A program made the translations under genes and the position numbers. The notes beneath the pieces were generated by a model. It made no database searches. It saw nothing but the letters and a program-made list of their open reading frames with translations, and was not told where the DNA came from. Positions 16,601 to 55,600 of a stretch of 55,866 nt of DNA are shown here, piece by piece; position 1 is the stretch's first letter; each line of letters begins with the position of its first letter. Source of the stretch: an uncultured Gammaproteobacteria bacterium. GTDB taxonomy: Bacteria; Patescibacteriota; Patescibacteriia; Patescibacteriales; UBA12075. The stretch covers positions 3,694 to 59,559 of the forward strand of contig CAYWNT010000008.1 in the NCBI GenBank assembly GCA_964459725.1, written 5' to 3'.

Positions 16601-17750
16601 ACTTGTAGATAAAAAGTTCCCGGTAATAAATAGAAAGGAGAAAATAACTATTCCGGAAAAACTAGTAAGAGAAGTAGTGCCAGAAGGGGATATTCACACA
16701 GAGGAAGAGAGGAGACTTTTCTACGTTGCTGTAACTCGTGCGAAAAGGAAGCTATATTTAACAACAGCCAAGGATTATGGCGGAGCAAGAGAAAAGAAAC
16801 CTTCCAAGTTTTTGGAGGAAATGGGTGAAGTCGAAAGTCGCCCGCCTGCCGGACGGACAGGAAAGTTGAAAGTCGCCCGCCTGCCGGACGGACAGGAAAG
16901 TCAGTTAAGTAGTAACGAGTTACTTGATGATGTAAATGCTAAGACAATCAAGAGGGAAACTGAGACTCTGTACGCATTACCAAAAATGTATTCATTTTCC
17001 CAACTTGAGGCTTATTCAAATTGTCCTTTGCAGTATAAGTTCAATTTTATTTTAAAAATACCGGTTGAGGAAAAGGTGAGCTTTATCTTTGGCAGGGTAA
17101 TGCATAATGTCCTTAAGGATTTCTTTGAGAGGATTATTGGTGGCAATAGTATTCAGCCTGAGTTGTTTAGCAGTACCGAAGAAAAAGAAGTTAAAAGGCC
17201 GACTGAAAAAGAATTGTTACAAATTTACAAAGAGAGATGGAATGATAATGGTTATCATTCTAAGCTCGAGAGAGAGAAATATAAAAAGAAAGGCGAGGAT
17301 ATTCTGCGTGATTTGTATAAAAGACTAGAGGAAGACGGTTGGCCGAAAGTCATGTTTGTTGAGAAAGGGTTTAATGTAAGAATTGGCCAATACACCCTCA
17401 GGGGTTCAATTGATAGAATCGACAGACTACCTGACGAGACTGTAGAGATAGTAGACTATAAAACAGGCAACCCAAAAGAGAAACTAGATGCCAAGAGCAA
17501 GCGCCAGTTAATACTCTATAAGATTGCTTGCGAGCAAGTGCTAGGCCTGAAGGTTTCTAAGCTTTCATATTATTATTTGGAAAACAATAACAAGATCTCT
17601 TTCGAAGCAAAAGACAAAGAAATAGAAAAACAAGAGGAACAAATTATAGCGCAAATTGAAGAGATAAAAAAATGCAACTTTACAGCAAAGCCTGGATTTT
17701 TATGTGCTTATTGTGACTTCAAAGATATTTGTGAGTTTAAAAAACTCTAA
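13683..17750 (+). CDS. UvrD/PcrA-family SF1A helicase fused to a PD-(D/E)XK nuclease with Fe-S cysteines; contains an intein
   Basis: AGAGTGKT, VDEFQD, GDDDQ/SIYAFRG, TVHAAKGLEF, EERRLFYVAVTRA; C-terminal GSIDRID...DYKTG and C.....CxxCxxxxxC. Confidence 0.95.
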   Translation: MTEFVKQLNNEQKKAATHKDGPLLVVAGAGTGKTTVLIERLNYLIKNKLAKPDEILITTFTEKAAGEMEERADKILPYGYTDLWINTFHGFCERILRDHALDIGLSADFKLLTQTEQWMMIRRHLDEFELDYYRPLGNPTKFIHELIKHFSRLKDENISSEEYLKYAEDLEQDTDSMLDGSKETKEQEVDRINEIANAFHKYNQLLLENSYLDFGDLIVYTIKLFKERPNVLKGYQEQFKYIMVDEFQDTNWSQYELIKILAEPKNNLMVVGDDDQCLPGSTKILLPKNKEKRIDKIKVGEEVVTAVGKGHLCFSKVKHVNKTIKKAKLITFKTEKGRTITTTDNHKMFCFVNEDKYAKEVKKYFYVYLMHKEGLGWRMGITNNLIIRLRLERKADKVVAIKACKNEIEARYQENLLSLKYGIPTNVFAERDGIMTKKELVEKLYKELDVESGVIRLAQDLGIDLTVHQVSSNGVNRSGKVRIKINLEMCYRNYRSKYRKVYLKTPNISHLLSVETTHKPTILKLKKMGFDLKNARLGKRLRIQSEDLSYLGKIAKKIQKEIGGIVENRFNVGTANIQHKRSLVVPASNILEGMYIPVVTSKGVIYDQIISRKEKKKKTTVYDLEIEKTHNFIANGIAVHNSIYAFRGSSMHNIMQFEDDFPKTKKVVLTKNYRSGEEILDASYNFIKHNDPNRLEVKLGIDKKLTSPLKKKGDIVNLNFHTEAEETSSVVKEIVNIKASEKESKWSDFAILVRANSTAVKFVNELDRAGIPNQFVSLRGLYQKPIVVDILAYLKLLDNYHESSALYRVLNMEVFKVTHSDIVTINKFARRKVWSTFEALRNIDAIKEISETSRENIKKLLIFIGKHSEKVKKSLPSKVYVSFVRDTGLLKDLDHDKDREIFDYLNQFYQKIKTFESDGDDLRLSDFMKMFEMELESGETGSLRSMADDPDVVKVMTVHAAKGLEFDYVFMPGLVDKKFPVINRKEKITIPEKLVREVVPEGDIHTEEERRLFYVAVTRAKRKLYLTTAKDYGGAREKKPSKFLEEMGEVESRPPAGRTGKLKVARLPDGQESQLSSNELLDDVNAKTIKRETETLYALPKMYSFSQLEAYSNCPLQYKFNFILKIPVEEKVSFIFGRVMHNVLKDFFERIIGGNSIQPELFSSTEEKEVKRPTEKELLQIYKERWNDNGYHSKLEREKYKKKGEDILRDLYKRLEEDGWPKVMFVEKGFNVRIGQYTLRGSIDRIDRLPDETVEIVDYKTGNPKEKLDAKSKRQLILYKIACEQVLGLKVSKLSYYYLENNNKISFEAKDKEIEKQEEQIIAQIEEIKKCNFTAKPGFLCAYCDFKDICEFKKL
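14511..15605 (+). mobile_element. 365-aa intein in helicase motif III with a GIY-YIG-like central domain
   Basis: Splits GDDDQ|SIYAFRG. Starts CLPGSTKI, has block B TTTDNH and block F VYDLEIEKTHNFIANG, and ends HN before Ser. Confidence 0.95.
16841..16896 (+). repeat. Two copies of the 21-nt element CCCGCCTGCCGGACGGACAGG inside the helicase gene
   Basis: Exact copies at 16841-16861 and 16876-16896, embedded in GAAAGTY heptamers. Confidence 0.9.
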
Positions 17751-17850
17751 GAGTCAGCTTAGGTTTTTATTATTGAAAAATTTGAAATAAAATGCTAAAG
17801 TTAATATATTACTTTAGCATTTTTTATTAATTTTAAGCTCGATATATTGC

Positions 17851-18228
17851 ATGACATTAAGCAAATATTTGACAATAATGGGAATTTTCACTGTGATTAG
17901 CTGGCTTAGTTTAATTTTTGTGCTTTGGACGGTAAATCCGGAAAGTACTAATACAGTGGGCTTTATTCTTTTTTATGTTTCCTTGTTTATTTCTTTACTT
18001 GGTACTTCGGCAATAATGGGTTTTGTAATAAGATTTGTAGCCATGAAAAAGGAATTAGCTTTTACCTTGGTGCGTAATGCCTTCCGTCAGTCATTTTTAT
18101 TTGCCGCCCTAGTTGTAATTTGTCTTTTTTTAATGACCAAAGACTTGCTGACTTGGCTAAACCTTTCTTTTTTGGTTATTGGGCTTTCAGTTTTGGAGTT
18201 TTTCTTATTAGGGTACGAAAACAATTAA
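17851..18228 (+). CDS. Four-TM hypothetical membrane protein
   Basis: Four hydrophobic helices; directly upstream of pheS. Confidence 0.75.
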   Translation: MTLSKYLTIMGIFTVISWLSLIFVLWTVNPESTNTVGFILFYVSLFISLLGTSAIMGFVIRFVAMKKELAFTLVRNAFRQSFLFAALVVICLFLMTKDLLTWLNLSFLVIGLSVLEFFLLGYENN

Positions 18229-18250
18229 CCAAATAATTTAATTAGCATAT

Positions 18251-19276
18251 ATGGAAAAAAAATTAGAACAAATAAAAAAAGATGCGATTGAAGCATTGAA
18301 AAATTTGAAGGACTCTAAGTTGGTAAAGGATCTTGAAACTGAATTTTTGGGAAGAAAAGGAAAGCTAACTACTGTACTTCGTGGAATAAAAGAGCTGAGC
18401 GCAGAAGAGAAGAAGAAGATTGGGAAATTGGCAAATGTTATAAAAAATGATATCCAGGAGAAATTTAATGAAATAAAAAACGAAGTTAGTGAAACAGGAG
18501 GAGAAAATTTTGTTGATGTAACTTTGCCAGGAAAAGAAATAAAGAGAGGACATCTAAGTCCTATCACCATAATACAAAATGAGCTGGAAGATTTATTCTC
18601 ATCCCTGGGTTTTGTGGTGGAAGACGGTCCCGAACTTGAAAGTGATTATTTCAACTTTGAAGCATTAAATATCCCTGCCAGTCATCCGGCGCGGGATATG
18701 CAGGATACATTTTTTATAGACAAGAAAAATGATAAAGATGAGTACGACTTAGTAATGCGCACCCACACTTCCCCTGTCCAGGTAAGATCAATGAAAAAGC
18801 ACGGAGCACCACTTAGGGTGATAGTGCCGGGCAGGTGTTTCAGAAATGAAGCCACAGATGTTAGACATGAGCATACCTTCTATCAACTCGAAGGTCTGAT
18901 GGTTGATAAGGGAATTAACTTCAGCCACCTAAAAGGAGTCTTAGAAGTGATTGGAAAATATTTGTACGGTGAAGATACTGAACTTAGAATGCGGCCTAAA
19001 TTTTATCCTTTTGTAGAACCGGGTGTGAATTTGGAATACACTTGCTTTCTCTGTAAGGGAGAGGGATGTAAGCTCTGTAAGAAAACAGGTTGGCTTGAAG
19101 TAGGAGGATGCGGCATGATTCATCCAGATGTTTTAAAGGCTGGCGGGATTGATAGTGATGAGTACACAGGCTTTGCTTTCGGATTCGGGCTTAATAGATT
19201 GGTAATGCTTAAATACGCCATAGAGGATGTCAGAACTTTTAATAGTGGAGACTTGAGATTTCTGTCTCAGTTTTGA
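18251..19276 (+). CDS. pheS: Phenylalanine--tRNA ligase alpha subunit
   Basis: HPARDMQDTF, MRTHTSPVQ, FYPFVEPG, GFAFGFG. Confidence 0.98.
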   Translation: MEKKLEQIKKDAIEALKNLKDSKLVKDLETEFLGRKGKLTTVLRGIKELSAEEKKKIGKLANVIKNDIQEKFNEIKNEVSETGGENFVDVTLPGKEIKRGHLSPITIIQNELEDLFSSLGFVVEDGPELESDYFNFEALNIPASHPARDMQDTFFIDKKNDKDEYDLVMRTHTSPVQVRSMKKHGAPLRVIVPGRCFRNEATDVRHEHTFYQLEGLMVDKGINFSHLKGVLEVIGKYLYGEDTELRMRPKFYPFVEPGVNLEYTCFLCKGEGCKLCKKTGWLEVGGCGMIHPDVLKAGGIDSDEYTGFAFGFGLNRLVMLKYAIEDVRTFNSGDLRFLSQF

Positions 19277-19326
19277 GACATACACGGAAAATAACGAAAA
19301 AATAAACGAACAGTAACTAATTTTTT

Positions 19327-20073
19327 ATGATACAAACTAAAGAAATAATACAATTTTGTGAGGAATATTTGAAGGTGGAGAATTTTGAAGATGGTTGTCA
19401 TAATGGATTGCAAATCGAAGGAGCGCCAAAGGTGGGAAAAATAATAACCGGTGTTACCTTGTCTCAGAAGCTGATTGAAACCGCTATCAAGAAACGAGCT
19501 AAGATGATATTAGTGCATCATGGAATCTTCCGAGACGCTCTAGGAAACCCCCCAATCGTAAAAGGAGTTTATAAAAATAGAATTAAGCTGTTACTGGAAA
19601 ACAATATCAATTTAGCAGCCTTTCATCTACCATTGGATGCCCACCCCTTGATTGGTAATAATATTTCGCTTTGTAGAGCACTTGGAATAAAGGATGTAAA
19701 ACCAATGGATGTTGGATTTGTGGGTGAGCTGGATGAGCAAATAAAATTTGCTGATTTTGTAGAAGTAGTAAAAGAAAAACTAGAAGCTGATCTGACTGTG
19801 ATCCCAGCAGGAACCAGAAAGGTGCAAAGAATTGGAGTAATTTCCGGCGGATCTTCACCTGAATATATTCAAGCAGTAGAAGAAGCAGCGGATGTTTATA
19901 TTTGTGGAGACTTGAGGGAAAATATAGTGCGAGAAGTAGAAGAGGTGAAATTAAATCTCATAAACGCCGGTCATTATAATACAGAAAAATTAGGAATAAA
20001 AAATTTAGGAGAATTAATCGCAAAAAAATTCGGAATTAAACATGAGTTTATAGATATACCGAATAGTATTTGA
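19327..20073 (+). CDS. Nif3-like dinuclear metal-centre hexameric protein (YbgI family)
   Basis: NGLQIEG, VHHG, HLPLDAHP, GHYNTE. Confidence 0.95.
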   Translation: MIQTKEIIQFCEEYLKVENFEDGCHNGLQIEGAPKVGKIITGVTLSQKLIETAIKKRAKMILVHHGIFRDALGNPPIVKGVYKNRIKLLLENNINLAAFHLPLDAHPLIGNNISLCRALGIKDVKPMDVGFVGELDEQIKFADFVEVVKEKLEADLTVIPAGTRKVQRIGVISGGSSPEYIQAVEEAADVYICGDLRENIVREVEEVKLNLINAGHYNTEKLGIKNLGELIAKKFGIKHEFIDIPNSI

Positions 20074-20074
20074 T

Positions 20075-20105
20075 ACACATAACAGTTGGCACATAACACA
20101 TAACA
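20075..20105 (+). repeat. ACATAAC heptamer array upstream of the four-helix-bundle gene
   Basis: ACACATAACA gttgg CACATAACACATAACA; reverse complement of the array at 20472. Confidence 0.75.
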
Positions 20106-20113
20106 TTTTTAAT

Positions 20114-20458
20114 ATGAATTATCATGATAATTTAAAAATAAAAATGCATAACTATGTGAAATTTGTGTATGAGGTTACAAAAAGTTATCCCAAGGATGAG
20201 ATATATGGAGTAACTTCTCAGCTTAGAAGATCTGCGATGTCAGTAATTCTTAATTATATAGAAGGATTTGCGAGAAATAAAGGAAAAGATAGTAAGGTTT
20301 ATAAAAATTTTTTAGAAATTTCATATGGCTCATTAAAGGAGTCAAAATATTTATTATATTTTTCATTAGATCAAAAATATATTACAGAAAAAGAATATAT
20401 TTATGGAAACGAATTGTCCGAAGAAATTGGAAAAATGCTTTGGAGTTTAATTAAATAA
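20114..20458 (+). CDS. Four-helix-bundle protein (23S rRNA intervening-sequence protein family)
   Basis: YPKDEIYGVTSQLRRSAMSV.LNY.EG and FL.ISYGSL.E signatures. Confidence 0.92.
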   Translation: MNYHDNLKIKMHNYVKFVYEVTKSYPKDEIYGVTSQLRRSAMSVILNYIEGFARNKGKDSKVYKNFLEISYGSLKESKYLLYFSLDQKYITEKEYIYGNELSEEIGKMLWSLIK

Positions 20459-20471
20459 ACGTGATTCATTT

Positions 20472-20506
20472 TGTTATGTGTTACGTGTTATATGTTACGA
20501 GTTATG
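20472..20506 (+). repeat. TGTTAYR heptamer array x5, the last unit supplying the pheT ATG
   Basis: TGTTATG TGTTACG TGTTATA TGTTACG AGTTATG. Confidence 0.85.
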
Positions 20507-23938: not shown

Positions 23939-26203
23939 TTATTTTTTATATTTACATTCCTTATTAGAGCATTTTGATCCTTCTTTTAGACCAACCATCA
24001 ATGACTCGCATTCCGGGCATTTTTCTCCTGTTGGTTTACTCCAGTAAGCGTTTTTACAATCTGGGTAATTATCACAAGCATAGAATGCTCCACGTTTACT
24101 TCTCTTCTGAACTATTTCACCTTTGCCGCATTTAGGGCATTTAATTCCAGTGCTATTTTTATTTTCTTCAAGTCCTTTGATGTTTTTGCATTTAGGATAG
24201 CCAGAGCAGGCCAAGAATGGTCCAAATCTGCCGTTTTTTATAATCATTTCGCTGTTACATTTATCACATACTTCGCCCTTGTATTTTTCTTGTAGGGCCT
24301 TGAGTTGATCATCTCCTTCTTTGTCCAGAGTTCCGTCAGTTTTTAAATTTTTAACATTTTTGCATTCAGGGTAATTGGAGCATGACATGAATTTCCCGAA
24401 ACGTCCTGTTTTAATAATCATTGGAGATTCGCATTTGTCACAAACCTCGTCTGTTTTTTCTTCTGGCATAATATCTTTTTTATTTACTTCTTTATATTTT
24501 ACTTCTAGGTTGGAGTGGAAAGGCTTATAGAAATTATCTATTGTTTCGTGCCATTTATGTTTTCCCTCGGCTATTTCATCTAGGTTTGTTTCCATTTGAG
24601 CTGTAAACTCATAATCAACGATATTCTTGAAATGATTGGTAAGGAGGTCGATAACTGTGAATGCAATCTCTGTTGGCTTTAATCTTTTGTTTTCTTCTCT
24701 TTGTACGTAATTCCTAGCCTCAATTGTTGAAATAGTTGGAGCGTAAGTTGATGGTCTACCAATTCCATATTGCTCCAGAGCTTTCACTAGAGTCGCGTCA
24801 GAATATCTAGCAGGCGGCTGAGTGAAGTGTTGTTCTGGATTTAGTTTTTCTAGGTCGAGCTCATCTCCGGCAGTAACCGTAGGCAGGATTGTTTCCTTGC
24901 TTTTTTCTGCATAAACCTTTAGATATCCAGGGAATTTTATTATCTGACCGGTTGTTCTAAATTGATATGGAGCCTGTCCTGAGCCTGTCGAATGGGTACT
25001 AGAGGCGTCTATGTCAATTGAAGTATTGTCCATGACAGCATCAGGCATTTGAGTTGCTATACTCCTTTCCCAGATTAACTTGTATAGCTTATACTGATCG
25101 GGTTTTAGCTTGTCTTTGAGTGAGTCAGGAGTTCTCTCGGCTTCAGTTGGGCGAATTGCTTCGTGTGCCTCTTGGGCGCCTTTACTTTTTGTTTTAAAAA
25201 CTCTTGGCTTGTCTAGGCTGTACTCCTTGCCAATTTCTTTGTCTAAATAGTTCTTTGCATCTTTAATAAATTTGGAAGACAGGTTCATAGAGTCGGTTCT
25301 CATGTAGGTAATCAAACCTCCACTGTCACCGCCCAGATCTAGACCTTCATATAATTGCTGAGCTACCATCATTGTTCGCTTAGCTGAAAATCCTAGCATT
25401 CTGTTGGCTGTAATTTGCAGCGTAGAAGTAGTAAATGGAGTAGGAGCTTTTTTCTTGCTTTCTTTTTTGGTTATATCAGAAACTTGGTACTTAACACCAT
25501 CTAGTTCTTTTAAAATCTTATCCATTTCCTCCTTGCTCTTAATCCCAAGCTTTGGAACACTCTTCCCATCTATTTTATTCAACTTTCCAATTAAATTTGC
25601 CTTTTTATCTTTTGTGTTTAGATTAGCCTCCAGGCTCCAATATTCTTCTGGCTTAAAGGCTTGTATTTCTCTTTCTCTTTCAATAATTAATCGAACGGCA
25701 ACACTCTGCACTCTACCTGCGGATAAACCATAAGTTATTTTTTTCCAAAGAAAAGGAGAAAGTTCAAAACCAACCAGTCTGTCTAGTACACGACGAGCTT
25801 GCTGAGCATCAACCAGGTCCATGTCAATTTTCTTTGGGTCTTCAAGGGCCTTAAGTATTGCACCCTTGGTAATTTCATGAAATACAATTCTTTGTGTTTT
25901 GCTAGCGTCTAATTTGAGCGCCTCGGCCAGATGCCAGGCGATAGCCTCTCCTTCACGATCTTCATCGGGCGCCAGGATTATTTCATCTGCCTTTTTGGCC
26001 AAGTCCCTTAACTTAGTAACTTGTTTTTTGGCTTTAGCTGGGATTACATATTTAGGTTTATAGTCATTCTCTAGATCTATTCCCATTTGTTTTTTTTCTA
26101 AATCACGGATATGACCAAAAGAAGACTCCACCTTGAAATCTTTACCTAAGAATTTTTTAATTGTTCTTGCCTTAGTAGGCGACTCAACGATAACTAATTT
26201 CAT
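23939..26203 (-). CDS. topA: DNA topoisomerase I
   Basis: LVIVESPTKA, DEDREGEAI, SAGRVQS, LITYMRTDS, C-terminal zinc ribbons. Confidence 0.98.
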   Translation of the reverse strand: MKLVIVESPTKARTIKKFLGKDFKVESSFGHIRDLEKKQMGIDLENDYKPKYVIPAKAKKQVTKLRDLAKKADEIILAPDEDREGEAIAWHLAEALKLDASKTQRIVFHEITKGAILKALEDPKKIDMDLVDAQQARRVLDRLVGFELSPFLWKKITYGLSAGRVQSVAVRLIIEREREIQAFKPEEYWSLEANLNTKDKKANLIGKLNKIDGKSVPKLGIKSKEEMDKILKELDGVKYQVSDITKKESKKKAPTPFTTSTLQITANRMLGFSAKRTMMVAQQLYEGLDLGGDSGGLITYMRTDSMNLSSKFIKDAKNYLDKEIGKEYSLDKPRVFKTKSKGAQEAHEAIRPTEAERTPDSLKDKLKPDQYKLYKLIWERSIATQMPDAVMDNTSIDIDASSTHSTGSGQAPYQFRTTGQIIKFPGYLKVYAEKSKETILPTVTAGDELDLEKLNPEQHFTQPPARYSDATLVKALEQYGIGRPSTYAPTISTIEARNYVQREENKRLKPTEIAFTVIDLLTNHFKNIVDYEFTAQMETNLDEIAEGKHKWHETIDNFYKPFHSNLEVKYKEVNKKDIMPEEKTDEVCDKCESPMIIKTGRFGKFMSCSNYPECKNVKNLKTDGTLDKEGDDQLKALQEKYKGEVCDKCNSEMIIKNGRFGPFLACSGYPKCKNIKGLEENKNSTGIKCPKCGKGEIVQKRSKRGAFYACDNYPDCKNAYWSKPTGEKCPECESLMVGLKEGSKCSNKECKYKK
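24973..24996 (-). repeat. 24-nt in-frame element CCCATTCGACAGGCTCAGGACAGG in topA
   Basis: Gives the insert in DASSTHSTGSGQAPYQF; removal restores DASSTPYQF. Confidence 0.8.
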
Positions 26204-27131: not shown

Positions 27132-27664
27132 ATGAAAAAGATTTTTTGTTTGGTGTTGGTAATATTGCAGACATGCTTGTCGGGCGTATCAAAAGGAAAA
27201 CTGCTTCACCGGTTGGTAGCTTTTTAATGACAGTAAAACTTGGCACTTATCCGAGTGCCAGATTACTTCGCGAAGCAATTTTATTAAAGGACAAAAAGAT
27301 TGATAGAAATGCAGATGATGTTCTTGAAAGCATTAAGATTAGCGAGAAAGAAGTCAAGTTGGATCTTTGGGAGATGTCTGCCACTGAGCTTGGATTCAAA
27401 GGGCCTGTGAGCCAGGAAGAAATCTACAATCGTGCTTTTGAGTGTGGCTTTGTAGAGTGTCCTGTGGAGGCTGGTTTTTTGGCATGTGTTGACTCTGGAG
27501 ATTCAAAATGCAGATTTATCGGGTCTGCGCCGATTTCAACTGGTGAATTTAGCGTACTTTATTTAGGTAATAAATTAGCCGGCTCTATTGGAATTGCGAA
27601 TCCAATAGATGGTCAGTGGATTGCTGATACAGTATGGGTGTTTGCCCGTATTCAGAGTTTGTAA
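27132..27664 (+). pseudogene. Frameshifted exported protein (signal peptide in one frame, body in the -1 frame)
   Basis: AGGAGG SD plus ATG 27132 gives MKKIFCLVLVILQTCLSGVSKGK...stop. The body (KLGTY, ELGF, CPVEAG, WVFAR) is in the frame of ORF 27146-27664. Confidence 0.6.
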
Positions 27665-27738: not shown

Positions 27739-27757
27739 CTTGCCCGCCCCTGGAGGG
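27739..27757 (-). repeat. 19-nt intergenic copy of the CCCnCC...GGGCARG element
   Basis: Minus strand CCCTCCAGGGGCGGGCAAG; compare CCCTCCAGGAAGGCGGGCAGG at 55458. Confidence 0.75.
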
Positions 27758-27770
27758 CATTGTGAAGTTA

Positions 27771-29924
27771 TTAGCTTTCCATCAAAACTCTAACCAGCCT
27801 GAGCTCATCATAACCATATTTACCGCCTAAGTGCTCAAACACCGGCTTCAGGAATTCGTCGCCGATTTCCTCGAAGCCTTTTTTTATTTCCTCATATTTA
27901 TCACGAGGGAGTTTTAGGTATTCTAGGTCTAGATTCTCACCTGCATCAATCATTTTTTCAATATGATTTATAATTGTGCTTGGTTTTTTGTCTAGACGTT
28001 TAGCGATTGATTTTATTGGACTTTTCTTTTTTAGAAGTTCTTTGGTGCGGATATAATATTCTGGTTTGCGGATTTTAATGTCAGTAACAATATTTTCTTT
28101 TTTTACTTTTTTTGCAGAGGAAATAATTTCCTTTGATTCTATATTATTGTCAGTAGCAAATTTTGAAATATTTTTTATAAAAATATCCCCAAATTTTTCT
28201 AACTTTTTAGCACCAACACCGGAAATTTGTGAGAATGATTTTTTGTCCTGTGGGAAATAGTATGCCATTTCCCTAAGAGATACATCTCCGAAAATAACAA
28301 AAGGTGGCACGTTGCTTTTTTCTGCTTGTTTTTTTCTTAAATCTCTTAGAATATCAAAAAGCTCGATGTTGTAATCCAGTGCTTCCTTCTTCTGCTTGGT
28401 ATCAACTAGTTCTATTTGAGGTTTTGGAAGTTCTAGCTTGTCTTCTGACTGCAAGAACAGAGCTCCTTTCTTAGTAATAGAGAGTGTGGGATATTTTCCT
28501 TCTTGCTTTAGGATGTAGTCAAGATTTGTGAGATGTTTTATGATATGTCCTAGTTCATCAGCGTTAAAGTCCTTTACAATGCCGAACACGCTTAAGTTCT
28601 CGTGGTTGTTGCGTACAACTCTTTTTGCTTTTCGTCCGAGTAGGACTTCAATAATATAAGCAGCTCCAAAACGACTCTCTGTTCTAAGGATTGCCGAAAG
28701 TATTTTCTTGGAAATGGTGGTAGCGTCAAACATCTCTTTTTCAGTGGTGCAAGAATCACAAGATTTACAATTATTTTTTTTCTGTTCTTCTCCAAAGTAT
28801 TTGAGCAAGTATTTTTTACGGCAGGTAGTAAGATCGGCGAAAGCGAGAACCTGGCTTAGTTTCTCTCGAGCCATTTCAGCCTGCGTGGCATCATCCATTT
28901 GATTAATAAAGAATTCATGCTTGCGATTGTCAGCATAGGTATAGAACATGATGCACTCACTAGGCAATCCGTCTCGGCCTGCTCTGCCGATTTCTTGGTA
29001 GTATCCTTCTAGTGTTTTGGGAAAGGTATAATGCACCACTAGTCTGACATCCGGTTTGTCGATCCCCATGCCAAAGGCGATAGTCGCTACTATGATATTA
29101 ACTTCGTCCTTAATGAAGGCTTCTTGAGCTAGTTTTCTTTTGCTCGTTTCTAGCCCGGCGTGATAAGCGCGCGCCTTGAATCCGTTTAATTTTAGATTCT
29201 CAGCTATTTCTTCTGTTTCTTTACGGCTAAAACAATAAATAATTACTGATTCATTTTTATATTTTTGTAAAATGTTTACTAGTTTAGGAAAAGCTTGCTT
29301 TTTCTCGGTAACAGAGATATTCAGATTTTCTCGATCGAAACTTGAAATAAAGGTTTCAGCCTTTTTCAGATCGAGTTGGTTTAAGATGTCATTTCTCACC
29401 TTGGAGGTGGCCGTAGCAGTCAGGGCAATAATTGGAATTTGAGGGAATAGTTTCTTGAGTTCACTTAGATTGCGATAATCAGGTCTGAAATCATGACCCC
29501 ATTCACTAATACAATGAGCCTCGTCAACAGCAATTAGATTGATGCTTAAGGTTTTTAAAAATTCCTTGAAGGCCGGAAGCGCAAATCTTTCAGGAGCGAT
29601 GTAGAGTATTTTGGTTTCATTATTTTGTGCTTTTTTGTATATTTCATCAATTTGCGCTGGAAGTAGGGTAGAGTTTATAAACTCAGCCTCAATTCCATTA
29701 GCTCTTAGTGAGTCAACTTGATCTTTCATAAGGGCGATCAAGGGTGAGATAACTAGGGTTATACCCTCAAACTTCAAAGCTGGCAGTTGATAGCAAAGAG
29801 ATTTTCCTCCTCCAGTCGGCATCAAAACAAAGGCGTCTTTGTTATCTAAGACACTGTCAATAATTTCTTCCTGCAAAGGACGAAATTCATCATAGCCAAA
29901 ATATTTTTTAAGTATGTTTAACAT
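27771..29924 (-). CDS. recQ: DNA helicase RecQ
   Basis: MPTGGGKSLCYQ, DEAHCISEWGHDFRP, QEIGRAGRDG; RQC, HRDC and C-terminal HTH domains. Confidence 0.97.
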   Translation of the reverse strand: MLNILKKYFGYDEFRPLQEEIIDSVLDNKDAFVLMPTGGGKSLCYQLPALKFEGITLVISPLIALMKDQVDSLRANGIEAEFINSTLLPAQIDEIYKKAQNNETKILYIAPERFALPAFKEFLKTLSINLIAVDEAHCISEWGHDFRPDYRNLSELKKLFPQIPIIALTATATSKVRNDILNQLDLKKAETFISSFDRENLNISVTEKKQAFPKLVNILQKYKNESVIIYCFSRKETEEIAENLKLNGFKARAYHAGLETSKRKLAQEAFIKDEVNIIVATIAFGMGIDKPDVRLVVHYTFPKTLEGYYQEIGRAGRDGLPSECIMFYTYADNRKHEFFINQMDDATQAEMAREKLSQVLAFADLTTCRKKYLLKYFGEEQKKNNCKSCDSCTTEKEMFDATTISKKILSAILRTESRFGAAYIIEVLLGRKAKRVVRNNHENLSVFGIVKDFNADELGHIIKHLTNLDYILKQEGKYPTLSITKKGALFLQSEDKLELPKPQIELVDTKQKKEALDYNIELFDILRDLRKKQAEKSNVPPFVIFGDVSLREMAYYFPQDKKSFSQISGVGAKKLEKFGDIFIKNISKFATDNNIESKEIISSAKKVKKENIVTDIKIRKPEYYIRTKELLKKKSPIKSIAKRLDKKPSTIINHIEKMIDAGENLDLEYLKLPRDKYEEIKKGFEEIGDEFLKPVFEHLGGKYGYDELRLVRVLMES

Positions 29925-46862: not shown

Positions 46863-47648
46863 ATGAAAATTACAAGCAAGGACAATAAAACTATAAAACT
46901 TTTTAAAAGTTTACAAAACAAAAAACACAGAGAAAAGGAGTCAATGTTTGTGGTGGAAAATTTAAAAACAATTTATGACGCTTTCGAGAGCGATATTTAT
47001 CCGGAGGAGATATTAATAACTGAAGAGATCCTAAAAAAAGATGGCGAAAAAATTAAAAATCTAACTAATTCAGTAAATATTATTGATTCAAAATTAAATA
47101 AACAAATTTCAAGCTTGGATACAGCTTCAGGCGCTATGGCAGTTTATAAAAAAAAGGAAAAAGAAATTAATAAGAAAGGTCCGATTGTTTATTTGAACAA
47201 TATCAATGACCCAGGCAATCTAGGTACAATTCTGCGTTCGGCTCTGGCTTTTGGTATTAAAAATATAGTTCTTGATGACAAAACAGTAGATCTCTATAAT
47301 CCTAAGGTTATTAACGCGGCCAAGGATTCGATTTTCAAGTTAAATATAAAAACGGGTGAGAGTATAGCGTTTCTTAAGGCGCTTGCCCTGTCGAATGACG
47401 GGGTTAAAGAAAAAACCCCAATCATCTCGACCTCACTTGAGGGAAGGAGCATTAAAGAGGGTAATGTGTTTAGCAAAAATAATTTTTGTTTAGTTCTGGG
47501 AAGCGAGGCCCATGGAGTAGACCAGGAAATCCTGGAAATGTCTGACTACAAAATAAAAATCCCAATCAGCAAAGAAGAGGAGTCATTAAACGTAGGAGTG
47601 GCTGCTGGAATAATATTTTTTTATATAGCATCATCTAAGGCAGTGTAG
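46863..47648 (+). CDS. TrmH/SpoU family RNA methyltransferase
   Basis: DPGNLGTILRSA, LGSEAHGV, ESLNVGVAAGI. Confidence 0.95.
   Translation: MKITSKDNKTIKLFKSLQNKKHREKESMFVVENLKTIYDAFESDIYPEEILITEEILKKDGEKIKNLTNSVNIIDSKLNKQISSLDTASGAMAVYKKKEKEINKKGPIVYLNNINDPGNLGTILRSALAFGIKNIVLDDKTVDLYNPKVINAAKDSIFKLNIKTGESIAFLKALALSNDGVKEKTPIISTSLEGRSIKEGNVFSKNNFCLVLGSEAHGVDQEILEMSDYKIKIPISKEEESLNVGVAAGIIFFYIASSKAV
47382..47402 (-). repeat. 21-nt in-frame element in the TrmH gene
   Basis: Minus strand CCCGTCATTCGACAGGGCAAG; adds LALSNDG, and removal gives FLKAVKEK. Confidence 0.65.
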
Positions 47649-51114: not shown

Positions 51115-52176
51115 TCAATAATGATTATAAACTACAGTTCCTAAATTATTTTCATTAGCCCTGGTAAAATTATCTCCTTCTGGAATGTTTGGTCCTACTT
51201 TTTTAAAAATATATTTAGCATCTCCCTGAGTTAGGTTGGTGCAGCCGTGGCTTTGTACTTTGCCGAACTTGTCATGCCAGTATGCTCCATGCACAGCGTA
51301 TGATCCGTTGTAGTACATGGTGTAAGGGACGTCTTTTAGGTCATAGGGCTCAGGGAATTGGGGAGGACCTCCGTCCATTCTTGTCTTTTTAAACTTTATC
51401 CAAATTCTGTTTACCCCTGTAATTGTAGGGTAAAAACGAGTGCCTGTTGAAATATATGTGGCAAAAAGCGGTTTGTCATAATTGAATAAGGTCAGCGTCT
51501 GCTTTGTTAGGTTAACATCAATCCAGTAATCTCCCTCCTTGACGACTTCTGGGATAGTGAATTCTTTTGGGGGTTCGGGCTGGGCAATTGCTTCGATATC
51601 CCCGCTTGAAATATAGGCACCTGGATAAGCTCCGCCATCAATCTTGTACCATTCACCACTATTAGTGGTGGTGGAATCTAGGACCTTTACTCTATTTACT
51701 AAATGAAAAAATCCAAGTCGGGTGGAGCTTGCATCTGGCTCGGTCATGACTGATGTATAGTCTTTGTTGATTTTCCCCCACCAGCCAATGTTTCTAAATT
51801 CATATGCGGTTTTTTCAAAAGCTGCTTTTTTTATTTTATTCTCATTGAACTGAGAAAGATCAATCGGAAATTTCTTCAAGTCTTCATTGGTTATGCCGAT
51901 GAAATTATTTTTTACAAATTCAAAAAAATCAGTAGGGTTCTCGGTTAGGTATGGGTCGAGGCTAAAGGTGTTTAGATAAAAAGCTTCCTCATTCGACATG
52001 TCAATAAAAGTTCGATGGAAGTTGTCCGGGTTTATATACCAAACCTCACCATTTTCTTCAGCTTGCAAAACAAATTTCCCTTTTAAGTGATTATAGAGAT
52101 TGTTAGCCAGAAGGGGAGCAGTGTTAGTTGCGAAAAATAAAATAAATAAAACGATAATGAAGGAAATTTTTTTCAT
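51115..52176 (-). CDS. L,D-transpeptidase (YkuD family) with signal peptide and SH3-like domain
   Basis: WIDVNLTKQ, ISTG...PT..G, catalytic HGAYWH...SHGCTNL. Confidence 0.92.
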   Translation of the reverse strand: MKKISFIIVLFILFFATNTAPLLANNLYNHLKGKFVLQAEENGEVWYINPDNFHRTFIDMSNEEAFYLNTFSLDPYLTENPTDFFEFVKNNFIGITNEDLKKFPIDLSQFNENKIKKAAFEKTAYEFRNIGWWGKINKDYTSVMTEPDASSTRLGFFHLVNRVKVLDSTTTNSGEWYKIDGGAYPGAYISSGDIEAIAQPEPPKEFTIPEVVKEGDYWIDVNLTKQTLTLFNYDKPLFATYISTGTRFYPTITGVNRIWIKFKKTRMDGGPPQFPEPYDLKDVPYTMYYNGSYAVHGAYWHDKFGKVQSHGCTNLTQGDAKYIFKKVGPNIPEGDNFTRANENNLGTVVYNHY

Positions 52177-52282
52177 AAATTTTTTGGTATTATTTTTTCG
52201 AATTTCTTTTCTGTCTTCAGTTAAAATTATATAACAATTAAATTAAGAAAAGATTAATTAAATTTTTTAAAGATGATTGTGG

Positions 52283-52313
52283 TCTGCCCTCCGAAGCCTT
52301 GGCGAAGGAGTGG
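52283..52313 (-). repeat. Intergenic GC-rich hairpin element of the CTTCG...GCT...GGGCAG type
   Basis: Minus strand CCACTCCTTCGCCAAGGCTTCGGAGGGCAGA, an isolated GC island in AT-rich DNA. Confidence 0.75.
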
Positions 52314-52322
52314 TTATCCACA
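52314..52322 (+). promoter_or_regulatory. Perfect DnaA-box match
   Basis: TTATCCACA; single copy, followed by about 350 bp of extremely AT-rich DNA. Confidence 0.4.
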
Positions 52323-52696
52323 AAGAGCGAAAGTGTAAATTTATTTTTTCTGTTTATAAAAATAAGCAAAAATTTAATAAATATTATTAAAAAAATTATT
52401 TTACTAATGTTAGCTAAATAATTTTTTATTAAAAACATAAAACTTAAGTTTTTTGTTATACTTTTTTATTTGTCTTAAACTAGTTAAAAATGGTATAATA
52501 AAGAGGAAATCAGCTTATTAAAAAAGAGAAATAAATTGAATAAAAAATAAAAATAAAATTAATATTTTAAACTAATATTAAATAATAAAAATCAAAAAAA
52601 TAAAAGAAAAATAAAATTTTTCAACTAAAAAAATAAAATACAAAAAACAAAAATAAAATTCGAAATTCTATAAAATAAAATTTGAATTTTATACCC

Positions 52697-55600
52697 ATGC
52701 TTGTCGGGAAATTTTGTAAAAAATTTTTAAATATTTTTAAATATTCACGATGGAGTCAGTTGAGGCGTTTGATGCTTAACTGGCGTTTTGTTTTTTTTGG
52801 AATATTAATTTTTGTTATTTTTGGAGTTTATCCTTATAGTTTTTTAAAAAAATCAATCAAGGCAATAAAGGGAGTTGATTCTGCAGTGGTGAGCCTCTAT
52901 GCAGACAAGGCAGCGTTAGTCGGTGAAGTTGAGGACGGATACAAAGTGGGCTGGTGGAATGTTGGTAACTCAATCGGAGAACCTGAGCTTGGACCAAATG
53001 ATGATTTACTATTTTTCAATGATGCTAATTCTGTTTTTTATTCAGGCGGAAATTACAGCATGGTGCTGGGTGATTTTTCTCCAGCTGAAGAATATGTGTC
53101 AATAGCAAATGAAGAGGATGAGGAAACTCAAGAAAGCTATGATATTGTCGAGGTGGTTGATGAAAATGAATTTGATAATGAGTCTGCTACTTCTTCCTTG
53201 GCTACTTCTACTACTGCTACTTCAACCAGTATAAGCACTGCTACTACTACAGCCTCAACATCCCCGGAAATTCAGGTTGAAGTGGAGGACGATGAGATTG
53301 TTGATGAAAGTATTGGAAATAGTGAAGATCCTTCGGCCACTTCGACTGGCTCTCCTTCGGCAAGCTCAGAGCAGACCCACCATGACGGCGGGCAGGTAGG
53401 GCAAGGAGGTGATAGGAGTGAGAATTTGTCTGAAACAGAACAGCCAATAGGCGAAGAAGAACAAATAATCCAAGAAGACATAGGGGGAGTTGAGGAATTG
53501 GCAGAGGAACCAGATGTTGAGTTCTTGGTTGAGGATTTACCCGAAGAGGGGAATGAGGATGCGGTGGTTGAAATTATTGAAATAGAAGAAAATGATGTTC
53601 AAATTCCTGTGGAAGAGGAGGTTGAAGATATTTCATTTTTGAAAAAATCAATTAATTTTGTAAGAAACATTGGTAGTGTTTTAACTAATTCCCGTGCTCA
53701 AGCTGCTTCAGAAAAAGTGGATTTAGAAAAATTTGGCGAACTAAATGGGGCTAGAATTGTTTTTTCTTTAGCCAGTGTTTATATAAATAGATCAAATAGT
53801 AGCTCTGATGAGGGGGGTGAAAATTCTTTTCCAGCCCCGCTAGACGTTGATACAACTGGTAGCGATGAATTCTTGGTCGAAGAGGGGGGTGAGACAGAGA
53901 CAATTTCGGAAGAACCTGTGCTGTTTGAGGCGGTTGAAGAAGAAGTATTGCCAGAGCCAGAAGTGGTCGAAGAGGAGGAAGTCGTATCAGAGCCAATAGA
54001 GAGTGAGACAGTGGAGCAGGAACCTGTCGAAGCTGAAGAAACAGACCTGATAAGCAGGATAAATAATTTTTTATTTCAATCAGTAAGCGCCCAGTCTGAT
54101 CAGAGAAATACCAAAATAATTATTTGGTATTCTACTCAAAAAGATCAGGGCACAACAAGTGAAGAAGCTCTCTGGCATGAGCTGGGCAGAATTAGTAGTG
54201 GAAATATTTCCAATGCTCTAAACGGCGGTTATTTTGAGTATGATGCGCCGTTTTTGGATAGTTGGGAAAAAATTGAAAATTTACGTATAAAGCTGGAAGG
54301 TGTAACCGGCGACGATGATAATTATATTTTTTACCTTGATTCAGTCTGGGTAGATGCAGAGTATGATCCCGCTGAAGAAGCGCCGGAAAAAGAAGAGGAT
54401 CGCAGGAAGAGATGGGAGGAGGCCTTGGAGTTGTTGTCAGAAAAACAAGATTTTAAATTAGATGAAAAAGGAGAACTTAGATTTAAATACAAAAAAAACA
54501 AAGAGAGGCTGCTCGAGGCTATTGGTGAATTTTTTGGACTTTCAAACTATTGGAGTGATGTAAATCTAAAGGCCGAACTTCGGGGTCGCAAGGGTGAAAA
54601 GCTTGACCTACCTCTTGATATTGTCTTTGAAGAAGATGGTGGATTTACTTTGAACTTGCCAGACTTGCCTCGTGATTTCCAGCCAGGTGAATATAGTATT
54701 GAATTCACAATTGAAGATAATTCGGGGGAGAATCCTGAAGTGATTACTCTAACTCAGGACTTTACTTGGGGAGTTATCGCTATGAATTTTAACAAAAGTA
54801 TTTATTCTATGGACGAAAAGGGCTATATCCAGATGGCTGTACTTGATGATTATGGGCATACAATATGTGATGCTGAGTTGAATCTGGAAATTATCGGACC
54901 GGGAGGAGCTATCGAGAGTTTAAGCACAGAGTCAGGTGATATTGAGCTAAGTGAATATTGCGGTCCGAAATCAATTACTAACGTACCGGATTATTTCATC
55001 TATTATGATTTTAAAAAGGAGGGGGATTATCAGTTTGAGTTAACCGCTGATACTAAAAATGGAACTAGAGTGATCCATGACTTTGTTGAGGTGAGAAAAG
55101 GTGTGGAGATTTTTGATATTGAGCGCACCGGAGCGACCAGGATTAACCCAAAGGCTGATTATGTTATGACTATTAGATTGACCGCGAATGAGGATTATCG
55201 TGGTGACATAACAGAGTATGTGCCAAGTGAATTTAAAATTACCCACACTTCGCTGATGCTTCTAGGGGCAGGCTCTTTAGAACGTGATCCTTTTGGTAGT
55301 AACTACAAATATTATGAGGATAATCAAGAAGGTGAGAAAATTCTTGTTTGGCAAGATGTTGATTTGAGAGAGGGGGATGTTCTGGAAATGAAATATACTT
55401 ATGACGCTCCTGATATTTCTCCAGAGTTTTATTTGCTAGGACCTCTTCGACTGAGCTCCCTCCAGGAAGGCGGGCAGGCAGGGCAGGCCCTTGATCAAAA
55501 CGGTATATTTGAGGAAAGTCGTTCTTGGCAGATAGCGTCAGACGCGGTTAGTAAAAGAGCGAAAACTGTTATGTTTTATGCCGGACAATACAATGGCGGA

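Follow-up and report, generated by a model that had tools for sequence, protein, structure and literature searches.

Families of ultra-short repeats with in-frame copies in conserved genes of an uncultured bacterium

Several conserved genes of an uncultured bacterium assigned to the Patescibacteriota carry GC-rich micro-elements, and comparison with orthologues supports their having been inserted as whole units, in frame, with the addition of 7-9 residues at apparently permissive loops. That these are real unit insertions is very probable. The elements fall into several ultra-short repeat families that resemble REP/SDR-type very small dispersed repeats, and we consider it probable that such units are copied into new sites, that the coding copies survive by selection, and that a trans-acting factor most likely does the copying. 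The analysis covers a 55,866-nucleotide stretch of DNA (the window), the whole 1.7-Mb genome assembly (36% GC), the 0.7-1.7-Mb genomes of relatives, whose sizes suggest a CPR/Patescibacteria-like lineage, and a wider sample of genomes, phages and plasmids.

Repeat families behind the GC-rich islands

All 12 stretches listed in the original prediction were present at their coordinates in the window sequence, and 10 of these are members of repeat families with a strong genome-wide excess of copies (Table 1). One exception, 55246..55272 (+), proposed as a 27-nt type-B copy, proved to be ordinary coding sequence across which 14 orthologues align with a one-residue gap; the other, the 'longer variant' noted at 52283, joined no family in our clustering. 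The division of the islands into two types of 21 and 24 nt had to be abandoned. There are at least four families, with cores of 18 or 20 nt in type A and about 20-24 nt in F1, and a 35-bp unit in the helicase gene; the net inserts in conserved genes are 21, 21, 21, 24 and 27 nt long, and with lengths varying in this way, the element ends are not sharply defined. The GRCARG-like 3' end noted originally is common to all four families. The type-A assignment holds for 16841, 16876, 27739, 53376 and 55458, whereas 47382 belongs to a different hairpin family, F2; among the supposed type-B copies, 24973 is F1, and 53337, 53352 and 55443 are F1-like.

Table 1 Repeat families and their copies in the window
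Feature	Position	Strand	Sequence or structure	Location
Family A			CCNCC-N3-8-GRNGG-RCARR; imperfect hairpin; own heptamer flanks per subfamily	
Family F1			(C)C-TTCGRCARGCTCAGGRCARG-(C); non-hairpin	
Family F2			CCCYGTC-ATTC-GACAGGG-YAAG; hairpin	
Family P1			CCTGYCTRYCGRCAGRCAGG; palindrome	
First tandem unit, 35 bp	16833..16867	+	GAAAGTCG heptamer, type-A core CCCGCCTGCCGGACGGACAGG (16841-16861), then AAAGTT	UvrD-like helicase/nuclease gene (13683-17750), linker between UvrD_C and PD-(D/E)XK domains
Second tandem unit, 35 bp	16868..16902	+	type-A core 16876-16896	same linker
F1 element	24971..24996	-	core TTCGACAGGCTCAGGACAGG at 24973-24992	topA (23939-26203, minus strand)
Type-A core	27739..27758	-	CCTCCAGGGGCGGGCAAG, preceded by GC	intergenic, between ORF 27146-27664 and recQ-like gene (27771-29924)
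F2 hairpin	47382..47402	-	minus strand CCCCGTC-ATTC-GACAGGG-CAAG	SpoU/TrmH methylase gene (46863-47648, plus strand)
GC-rich stretch, no family	52281..52310			intergenic
Two F1-like modules	53331..53375	+	TTCGACTGGCTC at 53341, TTCGGCAAGCTC at 53356; translation ..PSATSTGSPSASSEQ..	acidic low-complexity N-terminal part of large surface-protein-like gene (52682 to past window end)
Type-A core	53377..53396	+	CCACCATGACGGCGGGCAGG	same gene, directly 3' of F1-like modules
Composite block	55443..55490	+	F1-like module CCTCTTCGACTGAGCTC, type-A core CCTCCAGGAAGGCGGGCAGG (55459-55478), CAGGGCAGGCCC; translation ..LRLSSLQEGGQAGQA..	same gene, length-variable loop between conserved PEFYLLGP and WQIASDA blocks

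Copy numbers are far above chance, as had been anticipated. The F1 core pattern matches the genome 30 times (reversed pattern, 1) and the type-A pattern 46 times (reversed pattern, 0). Under a 4th-order Markov model, the 11-mers CATTCGACAGG (11 observed vs 0.25 expected), GGCGGGCAGGC (12 vs 0.25) and CGGCAGACAGG (11 vs 0.30) are in 35-50-fold excess. None of the elements matched an Rfam family. The term 'hairpin' suits the TrmH element (F2; fold z = -2.0 as DNA and -2.5 as RNA), the palindrome family and, weakly, type A (z = -1.2 for the 27739 core), but not F1, which, like the helicase type-A copy, folds no better than shuffled sequences.

The units are modular. Heptamer flanks differ between type-A subfamilies and are thus part of the unit rather than target duplications; heptamer arrays are also common on their own, with 6 of 51 adjoining a GC-rich stretch at our cutoff. 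In the genome G431, modules are chained and shuffled ([CCCTTCGAC]n-F1-CAGGCTCAGGGACC), and in G000, type-A units form head-to-tail chains. P1 hairpins cluster beside tRNA genes, and F1 copies lie directly 3' of one tRNA gene and of the tmRNA gene.

An example of modular arrangement is the helicase gene, where the two type-A copies, originally taken for free-standing 21-nt inserts, each sit within a tandemly repeated unit of 35 bp, together with heptamer flanks of the AAAGTCG type. The first unit is translated as ..SRPPAGRTGK.. and the second, in another phase, as ..KVARLPDGQES..; a FemAB-like gene at another genomic locus contains two more copies of the ARLPDGQES-type peptide, in the same phase, and the 35-bp unit is found at 11 islands genome-wide (family 3 of the clustering). 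Separate contigs of runs X1 and X2 break at 16837-16898, in the manner typical of repeats. The helicase copies lie in a length-variable linker and the surface-protein copies in length-variable loops, so that orthologue alignment does not set the exact limits of these inserts.

In-frame insertions and the filter on coding copies

In five conserved genes, the inserts stand out as block indels. TopA carries a net insert of 24 nt or 8 residues (..THSTGSGQA..) that is absent in 17 of 19 orthologues and is located at the tip of a hairpin turn, where solved TopA chains show a gap. The TrmH insert (21 nt, 7 residues, LALSNDG) is absent in 12/12 orthologues; five further F2 copies in the genome comprise three intergenic ones, one at a gene edge and one in a called CDS. 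The exact indels predicted for TopA and TrmH are thus borne out, and comparable inserts are present elsewhere in the genome, in AspRS (21 nt, 7 residues; absent in 13/13 orthologues), ExoIII (21 nt, 7 residues; absent in 11/11) and an ELP3-like protein (27 nt, 9 residues; absent in 12/12 informative orthologues), extending the proposed 7-8 added residues to 7-9. All five genes remain open as long ORFs.

The relative G011 carries a different hairpin, AGACGCAT-N4-ATGCGTCT, at five loci and G021 carries it at two; all seven copies are within long ORFs and in one phase, and one copy in each genome occupies the same TopA loop. In one metagenomic TopA, a P1-type palindrome with heptamer flanks is present there as well; the closest metagenomic TopA is only 66% identical.

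A filled/empty pair is provided by tRNA-His and its partial duplicate, which differ by an exact 20-nt P1 insert between flanks identical over 21 and 40 nt. At this site, the sole case where it can be read, there is no target-site duplication, in agreement with the original prediction, and no donor-recipient microhomology was seen. Presence/absence polymorphism was not seen in the only runs covering the sites, which are probably the source samples and are present as contigs; the TopA insert is spanned without difference by separately built contigs of two of them.

The description of coding copies as lying on either strand and in different frames is misleading. A single sense phase accounts for 21 of the 27 F1-core coding matches (binomial p 5e-12) and yields the peptide (P/T)S(T/A)(S/G)S(G/A)Q; of the 20 type-A coding copies, 16 run in the direction of the host gene, encoding ARLPDGQES, RPPAGRTGK or SLQEGGQAG. 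These counts rest on crude whole-genome ORF calls, which may have mislabelled some copies as 'CDS antisense' or 'intergenic'. Among intergenic copies, the ratio of leading to lagging strand (13 to 6) reveals no polarity in excess of that of the genes themselves (853 to 242). Of the type-A copies that are intergenic or at a gene edge (26), 17 have the orientation of the gene upstream and 8 the opposite orientation. Because the coding bias is absent from intergenic copies, we infer that selection filters strand and phase, and not frame alone as originally proposed. Synonymous positions are kept among copies in unrelated genes.

The F1 core in other phyla, phages and plasmids

Of 401 genomes drawn from the whole phylum, 46 carry the F1 core (reversed control, 0). 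Elsewhere, it occurs on at least 119 contig stretches that represent many phyla, on at least 120 viral-contig stretches and in 51 plasmid records of isolates. In Proteobacteria, it forms REPIN-like inverted doublets, as in the Moraxella and Sphingobium plasmids of cultured isolates. The genome G431 has 114 copies in 1.8 Mb, and G433 has 32 copies in a complete 3.6-Mb chromosome. F1 is the local version of a core common to many phyla and carried by phages.

How the units may be copied

The window's genome encodes one intact IS200-type Y1 gene, but the predicted Y1/HUH gene flanked by the motif was not recovered: this gene is flanked by ACCACCAG..CTGGTGGT hairpins unrelated to the elements, and no mobilising gene linked to any element was found. 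Across the phylum, Y1 genes are present in 34/46 F1-positive vs 156/355 F1-negative genomes (odds ratio 3.6, p 1.4e-4; cross-tabulated by hand, ignoring relatedness and genome size), whereas the reverse-transcriptase control shows no enrichment (16/46 vs 121/355). Statistically, the link is suggestive, but it is at odds with copy-rich genomes: G431 and G433 have no match to Y1 (PF01797). Among the 46 F1-positive genomes of the phylum, 12 have no Y1 match. In five F1-rich genomes, 19 of the 21 Y1 loci (56.6 kb) lack an F1-core match, the only two matches lie beside the Y1 gene without flanking it, and there are no type-A matches at any of the 21. The weak folding of F1 and of the helicase type-A copy also makes for a poor fit with hairpin-recognising HUH enzymes. 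Dedicated mobilisation in trans by some factor is, on balance, slightly favoured; mobilisation specifically by Y1/HUH is unlikely.

Without a dedicated transposase, the units could be copied between loci by the repair and replication machinery of the cell, possibly through ectopic gene conversion, template switching or templated filler synthesis at breaks, seeded by microhomology in an AT-rich genome, with local slippage then expanding units and heptamers. The copy-rich genomes devoid of Y1, the variable insert lengths, the 35-bp tandem duplication in the helicase gene, the chained and shuffled modules, the abundance of solitary heptamer arrays and the lack of target duplication at tRNA-His are all compatible with this route. 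However, it leaves unexplained both the identical ~20-nt core in many phyla and phages and the completeness of the inserts, which share the GRCARG 3' end instead of being chance pieces of nearby DNA, and no donor-recipient microhomology was seen at the tRNA-His site; we regard it as a doubtful alternative. An RNA route, in which element transcripts are reverse-transcribed and copied into DNA, has been proposed for cyanobacterial small dispersed repeats. The genome has two bacterial-type reverse-transcriptase genes (~380 aa), for several stems, RNA folding with G-U pairs on one strand gives the better structure (helicase unit, minus strand -11.2 vs plus strand -7.6 kcal/mol), and coding copies are sense-oriented. 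Nevertheless, this route is improbable: F1-bearing genomes show no excess of reverse-transcriptase genes, no elements flank the two genes here, and the orientation of intergenic copies does not follow that of neighbouring transcription, which makes selection the better explanation of the sense bias.

The repeats could instead be non-mobile functional signals, such as a DNA-uptake-type sequence, a protein- or RNA-binding site or part of a terminator, or else a favoured linker peptide, accumulated by selection, recombination and horizontal transfer. The very consistent F1 peptide phase, the positions of P1 and F1 relative to tRNA and tmRNA genes and the conservation of the core across phyla would fit, but coding copies are block indels relative to orthologues rather than substitutions, synonymous positions are kept, strand polarity and Rfam matches are lacking, and the density of ~30-46 copies in 1.7 Mb is much lower than known uptake sequences reach; the probability of this explanation is very low. 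An assembly or binning artefact, or mere local low-complexity slippage, might be suspected because the genome is a metagenome bin of 128 contigs, with an estimated contamination of 2.7% and some contigs that look foreign (C40 and C28), and because contigs break at the helicase tandem. This is hardly credible given the open ORFs of five conserved genes, the TopA insert without difference in two runs (probably the source samples) and the same core in complete chromosomes and plasmids of cultured isolates.

In the preferred reading of unit copying followed by selection, entire elements are copied to new sites, among them intergenic DNA, protein-coding genes and a tRNA paralogue. They are most likely non-autonomous and would depend on a factor supplied in trans, for which a Y1/HUH (RAYT-like) enzyme acting on single-stranded DNA would be the leading named candidate. 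Coding copies would survive only where they keep the frame, occupy a permissive loop or linker and have the strand and phase that give short hydrophilic peptides.

Short GC-rich element families and their heptamer context

The source genome (G000) is a metagenome bin of 1.695 Mb in 128 contigs, with 36.4% GC, a completeness of 92% and an estimated contamination of 2.7%; the 30 genomes nearest to it are 0.7-1.7 Mb, the organism is probably CPR/Patescibacteria-like, and DNA of the window is contained in marine or seawater metagenome runs. All 12 stretches listed in the original prediction, which assigned them to two types (A and B) of in-frame micro-elements, exist in the window sequence, and Pfam confirms the host genes that it named, a UvrD-type helicase, topA and a SpoU/TrmH methylase. 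The motifs also occur above chance genome-wide, as had been anticipated. Core 11-mers are found 35-50 times over the expectation of a 4th-order Markov model (CATTCGACAGG, 11 observed vs 0.25 expected; GGCGGGCAGGC, 12 vs 0.25; CGGCAGACAGG, 11 vs 0.30), and the longer patterns far exceed their reversed controls, with 30 matches against one for the F1 core TTCGRCNRGCTC and 46 against none for the generic type-A pattern.

The 5,658 GC-rich islands of the genome were clustered, and crude ORF calls made for this analysis served as whole-genome gene calls. Type A, an imperfect hairpin with heptamer flanks, and F1, an element that is not a hairpin, share a cluster of 42 islands, of which 22 lie between genes, 19 in ORFs and 1 at an edge. 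The palindrome P1, CCTGYCTRYCGRCAGRCAGG, accounts for 19 islands (15 lie in intergenic DNA, for the most part beside tRNA genes), an AAAGTCG-flanked unit of the kind seen in the helicase for 11, and a GC-rich family containing CCCACCCTGACGGGCATCCCTCCAAGGAGGGG, which codes for PP(H/R)PDGHPS(K/R)EG, for 12, four of them in ORFs. Roughly one in two copies in the source genome is genic; called ORFs contain 20 of the 46 type-A matches and 27 of the 30 F1-core matches. The four main families all finish in GRCARG-like bases, in agreement with the predicted common 3' end. The proposal that the elements are hairpins holds for P1 and for F2 (CCCYGTC-ATTC-GACAGGG), which fold well (z of -2.0 to -2.5), but type A folds weakly to moderately (+0.5 to -1.2) and F1 forms no hairpin (+0.8 to +1.8).

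In the helicase, a 35-bp unit (GAAAGTCG, which resembles a heptamer, followed by the 21-nt core CCCGCCTGCCGGACGGACAGG and AAAGTY) occurs twice in tandem; since its length is not divisible by 3, the first copy reads RPPAGRTGK and the second, in another phase, ARLPDGQES. In topA, the sense strand of the gene has TTCGACAGGCTCAGGACAGG, and at the surface-protein sites F1-like and type-A modules follow one another in chains. Some of the listed sites had to be reassigned. The TrmH copy, previously considered type A, reads on the minus strand as another hairpin, CCCCGTC-ATTC-GACAGGG-CAAG, which is found at five other places in the genome, of which three are intergenic, one lies at the edge of a gene and one within a called CDS; site 52283, described as a family variant, joined no family in the island clustering; and site 55246, to which 14 orthologues align, is ordinary coding sequence.

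On either side of type-A cores lie direct heptamers whose sequence depends on the subfamily: AAAGTCG pairs with CCCGCCTGCCGGACGGRCAGG at 11 islands, CATAACA with CCGCC-loop-GGCGGRCAGG, and others likewise. Since the heptamer tracks the subfamily, it belongs to the unit and does not represent a target duplication. Type-A subfamilies are located within AAAGTCG, CATAACA, GATTGAA and similar arrays, and F1 is found inside heptamer arrays at three loci from other genomes (L075, L079 and L150). Heptamer arrays are frequent by themselves: in a filtered TRF set, 6 of the 51 arrays adjoin a GC-rich stretch under a cutoff that we set. Tandem arrays of CATAACN, AAAGTCG, TAAATCC, TGTTATC and other heptamers are abundant both intergenically and in ORFs, and often end contigs, so that they probably fragment the assembly.

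The cleanest evidence of a unit copied into pre-existing sequence is a tRNA-His pair. A partial duplicate of this gene, about 150 nt away, has exactly 20 nt, CCTGCCTGTCGGCAGACAGG, inserted into its D loop between flanks of 21 nt and 40 nt that are identical in the two sequences, and no target-site duplication is present at this insert, as the original prediction had it. The duplicate is truncated, with a diverged 3' end, and ARAGORN calls no tRNA in it. Elsewhere, P1 directly adjoins many tRNA genes and may represent processing or terminator hairpins of tRNA operons; the tmRNA gene is closely followed on its 3' side by two intergenic F1 copies, and a tRNA-Arg gene directly by another. A longer dispersed repeat of more than 200 nt, in which GGGGGTTTGGGGGTGGATGCTGAGCG and ATAAGCGGTAGCGCGATAGG blocks have type-A cores between them, is present in 6-8 copies, mostly intergenic.

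Several further features of the bin were noted. Chained F1 and type-A modules are most abundant in the very large Pfam-less proteins (2,000-4,700 aa), which have acidic low-complexity linkers. The UvrD-like helicase contains an intein between its N- and C-terminal helicase domains and a PD-(D/E)XK nuclease domain fused at the C-terminus. The 3.7-kb contig C40, whose 1133-aa ORF includes a reverse-transcriptase domain, is unlike other contigs of the bin in sequence; it resembles a eukaryote-type retroelement and is probably contamination. The helicase-like match on contig C28 suggests an organism that reads TGA as sense.

Features in the window and on contigs (C) of the source genome
Feature	Position	Strand	Remark
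UvrD-type helicase with intein and PD-(D/E)XK nuclease domain	window 13683-17750		Pfam
Helicase intein	window 14550-15605		residues ~290-641; Intein_splicing and Hint Pfam matches
Helicase 35-bp repeat units	window 16833-16867, 16868-16902
topA	window 23939-26203	minus	Pfam
SpoU/TrmH methylase	window 46863-47648		Pfam
Large protein	window 52682 to past window end		no Pfam match
Very large proteins	window 3-6116, 52682-55866; C1:55433-63643; C8:63117-77234		no Pfam match
Tandem heptamer arrays	window 20075-20105, 20472-20504
Heptamer arrays at contig ends	C5:1-55; C20:1-55; C20:11698-11752
CCCACCCTGACGGGCATCCCTCCAAGGAGGGG family, IleRS N-terminus	C1:181480-181539		family also has intergenic copies
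CCCACCCTGACGGGCATCCCTCCAAGGAGGGG family, FemAB-like gene	C1:201876-202994
P1 beside tRNA genes	C4:16396-16900; C1:145826-146011; C7:26874 and 37954; C18:5775		examples
tmRNA gene	C7:24627-25012	complement
F1 copies 3' of tmRNA gene	C7:24456-24546		two copies
tRNA-Arg	C11:22889-22963	complement
F1 copy 3' of tRNA-Arg	C11:22877
tRNA-His	C11:21822-21896	complement
tRNA-His duplicate	C11:21999-22079	minus
Repeat of >200 nt	C1:77377-77521; C2:28849-28991; C2:116533-116676; C9:65913-66096; C12:10366-10511		and others
IS200-type Y1 gene	C2:98747-99130		intact
Helicase-like match	C28:3714-4439		10 in-frame TGA codons

In-frame inserts in conserved genes

In five conserved genes, comparison with orthologues verified block inserts, with net lengths of 21, 21, 21, 24 and 27 nt; the ends assigned to the elements are approximate.

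Inserts in five genes compared with orthologues
Gene	Insert	Orthologues without insert
TopA	+8 aa (24 nt), ..HSTGSGQA..	17/19
TrmH	+7 aa (21 nt), LALSNDG	12/12
AspRS (outside window)	+7 aa	13/13
ExoIII (outside window)	+7 aa	11/11
ELP3-like (outside window)	+9 aa	12/12 informative

The indels of exactly 21 or 24 nt that had been proposed are thus borne out for TrmH and TopA, but not for the helicase or for 55443-55490, where limits are not definable: the latter is length-variable among orthologues, and the helicase units and a pair of type-A copies in the ELP3-like gene occupy linkers of varying length; both situations fit insertion. In solved TopA structures, too, a gap falls exactly at the insert, in a hairpin turn. 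Translational bypass or RNA-level removal is unneeded, given that the verified inserts are all multiples of 3 without stops. The suggestion that the elements themselves are multiples of 3 in coding sequence failed, because type-A cores are 18 or 20 nt long, in coding and intergenic copies alike; the reading frame is kept by the insert flanks and not by the core. Candidate inserts were also seen in IleRS, GlgA and FemAB-like genes. Contigs of two metagenome runs that are probably the source samples match the window with no indel, and those of two others do not extend over the insert sites, so these runs are uninformative on polymorphism; no same-species empty TopA allele was found in metagenome contigs, the best match being 66% identical.

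The TopA loop appears as an insertion hot spot. Two relatives have another perfect hairpin, AGACGCAT-N4-ATGCGTCT, in the same loop as the insert described here. This hairpin is found at five loci in the relative G011 and two in the relative G021, and at none in G000 and the further genome G015 (reversed control, 0); 7/7 copies lie within ORFs of 298-762 codons, in one phase, ETH(G/S/C)NAS. Loop length varies among 80 metagenomic TopA homologues, and one of these has, in the same loop, an in-frame palindrome of P1 type flanked by heptamers. Thus, a single TopA loop has been hit by three different elements in different lineages. The helicase linker at two loci from other genomes (L042, from G023, and L055) reads PSTSSGRG, which is F1-like, or PRPAGEGRGEG, so that this linker, too, is a repeated landing place.

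Copies had been predicted to occur on either strand and in different frames, a description that misleads, as both families are mostly sense to the host gene. Of the type-A ORF copies, 16/20 are sense, in three phases (10, 4 and 2), the four antisense copies being in small, doubtful ORFs, and 21/27 F1-core ORF matches are sense in a single phase, (P/T)S(T/A)(S/G)S(G/A)Q (binomial p 5e-12); the remaining matches are mostly without the full element. Orientations of intergenic type-A copies relative to the upstream and downstream genes (same/same 12, opposite/opposite 8, same/opposite 4) rule out transcription-coupled orientation, and a ratio of 13 leading to 6 lagging by local GC skew, compared with 853:242 for genes, rules out a KOPS-like or lagging-strand polarity. 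Because the strand and phase bias is confined to coding copies and absent intergenically, it is best read as the result of selection for tolerable hydrophilic peptides and not as a property of the insertion step.

Spread of the F1 core across phyla, viruses and plasmids

A 20-nt F1 pattern matches 46 of the 401 genomes sampled from the phylum, in 44 of 320 genera, and its reversed counterpart matches none. With one genome per species, the pattern is present in at least 119 stretches; among the matches listed, all titles are those of MAGs, and the phyla include Acidobacteriota, Chloroflexota, several proteobacterial classes, Bacteroidota, Planctomycetota, Cyanobacteriota, Saccharibacteria and others. 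These cross-phylum loci have only ~22-26 nt in common, with unrelated flanks, and some lie within heptamer arrays. The largest copy numbers are 114 in a 1.8-Mb genome (G431) and 32 in a complete 3.6-Mb chromosome (G433); in G431, 20/20 sampled copies are intergenic, arranged in mosaic arrays that have inverted partners close by. The pattern is also present in viral contigs (at least 120 stretches), and the F1 core in 51 records of plasmids or chromids of cultured strains; its copies on one plasmid of Moraxella osloensis and one of Sphingobium are arranged as inverted doublets between genes. Where a long ORF crosses F1, PSTGSGQ is the commonest phase (6/6 low-GC loci from all phyla, 5/7 CPR and 51/121 viral), with the proviso that ORFs of 150 codons are weak gene evidence in high-GC DNA. 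Neither the window nor six loci with F1 gave an Rfam family scoring at the gathering threshold. In the searchable literature, six 15-nt DNA strings of the F1 core occur in no paper, and searches for in-frame inserts of this kind in CPR genomes returned no such paper, only general reviews and unrelated papers.

Candidate mobilisers and similarity to known systems

The original prediction had the elements mobilised by an HUH transposase (Y1; PF01797) whose gene would be flanked by the motif. The only intact Y1 gene of the source genome, of the IS200 type, lies instead between its own hairpins, ACCACCAG..CTGGTGGT, which are unrelated to the elements. No TnpB (PF07282) was found in this genome, and its two bacterial reverse transcriptase genes have no flanking elements. 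In a hand cross-tabulation of 401 genomes that ignores kinship, Y1 genes are commoner in genomes with F1 (34/46 vs 156/355; odds ratio 3.6, Fisher p 1.4e-4), whereas reverse transcriptase genes are not (16/46 vs 121/355). Against Y1 as the mobiliser stand the scarcity of F1-core matches (only 2) at 21 Y1 loci from five other F1-rich genomes, the lack of any Y1 match in the copy-rich G431 and G433 and in two plasmid records, and the absence of a hairpin in F1. The copies inspected in the source genome are singlets or head-to-tail chains. The mechanism by which the elements spread is one that we infer.

An IS200/IS605-derived, PATE-like miniature is rejected on the same hairpins, which the element ends do not resemble, and on the lack of TnpB. 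REPs are generally species- or genus-specific, whereas the F1 core spans phyla. In the REP-RAYT system, it is the inverted doublet (REPIN) that replicates. Similarity to REPs and REPINs is seen in the inverted doublets of the Moraxella and Sphingobium plasmids and in the enrichment of Y1 among F1-bearing genomes of the phylum, and the mosaic arrays of G431 resemble BIMEs. According to Bertels and Rainey 2011 (PMC3116915), REPs are short GC-rich imperfect palindromes with tens to hundreds of copies; the elements here are likewise short, GC-rich and of such copy numbers. The present elements differ in that about half of the copies in the source genome are in genes and F1 is a singlet without a hairpin; with their genic copies and no RAYT gene (the Y1 type tied to REPs) flanked by them, they fall short of the definition of the REP-RAYT system. 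The Rickettsia palindromic elements (RPEs) are likewise palindromic, selfish-looking repeats in frame at permissive positions of coding genes. However, their length is ~105-146 nt in Delihas 2011 (PMC3184786, citing Ogata et al. 2000), whereas the inserts here are 21-27 nt, the host belongs to another group, and several unrelated micro-families coexist in one genome.

Among fungal mitochondrial elements, GC clusters, double-hairpin elements and byp elements are usually 30-55 nt long, and byp elements are bypassed by the ribosome. They, too, are short, GC-rich and often palindromic, in compact AT-rich genomes and sometimes within coding sequence, but they are organellar. Unlike byp elements, the inserts here are multiples of 3 without stops, so that plain read-through suffices. 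MITEs are rejected because there is no target duplication at the tRNA-His insert, there are no TIRs, and the heptamers are subfamily- but not site-specific. DNA uptake sequences (DUS/USS) are built by substitution, at high density and with no indel relative to orthologues; the coding copies here are block indels, and there are ~30-46 copies in 1.7 Mb, so they do not fit this class.

The closest known system in behaviour appears to be the small dispersed repeats (SDRs) of heterocystous cyanobacteria. As Elhai and colleagues reportedly described them in 2008, SDRs are ~21-27 nt long, form families alike in fold rather than in sequence, and often lie within tandem heptamer arrays, with copies chained or nested; they are said to have been proposed as the smallest mobile elements, with no known transposase. 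Both fall in one size class (cores of 18-24 nt in the source genome), occur in a heptamer context and lack a transposase. From SDRs so described, the present elements differ in their host, a small-genome and probably CPR-like bacterium, in the many in-frame copies in conserved genes, and in the occurrence of F1 in many phyla and phages, clearly wider than one cyanobacterial subgroup.

To our knowledge, the way in which repeats without room for any gene spread has been an open question since the cyanobacterial SDR paper of 2008. The source genome offers clean, datable events, namely, the block inserts in five conserved genes, the filled and empty tRNA pair and the three-element TopA loop, and ties them to a core common to distant phyla, phages and cultured Moraxella and Sphingobium, where experiments are possible. 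On a reading that we consider doubtful as a whole and put forward tentatively, F1 (core TTCGRCARGCTCAGGRCARG) would be a mobile or templated unit of ~22 nt that occurs throughout bacteria and is carried by phages, not tied to Y1 and identical in more than 10 phyla through horizontal spread or a universal host factor; together with its sister micro-elements, it would represent an undescribed and general means by which essential proteins such as TopA, aminoacyl-tRNA synthetases and repair nucleases gain new surface loops. In practical terms, the units break assemblies, and motif-rich peptides can mislead homology searches and annotation. Selection apparently shapes the insertions into short hydrophilic loops, which would give reduced genomes a concrete way of evolving new protein loops.
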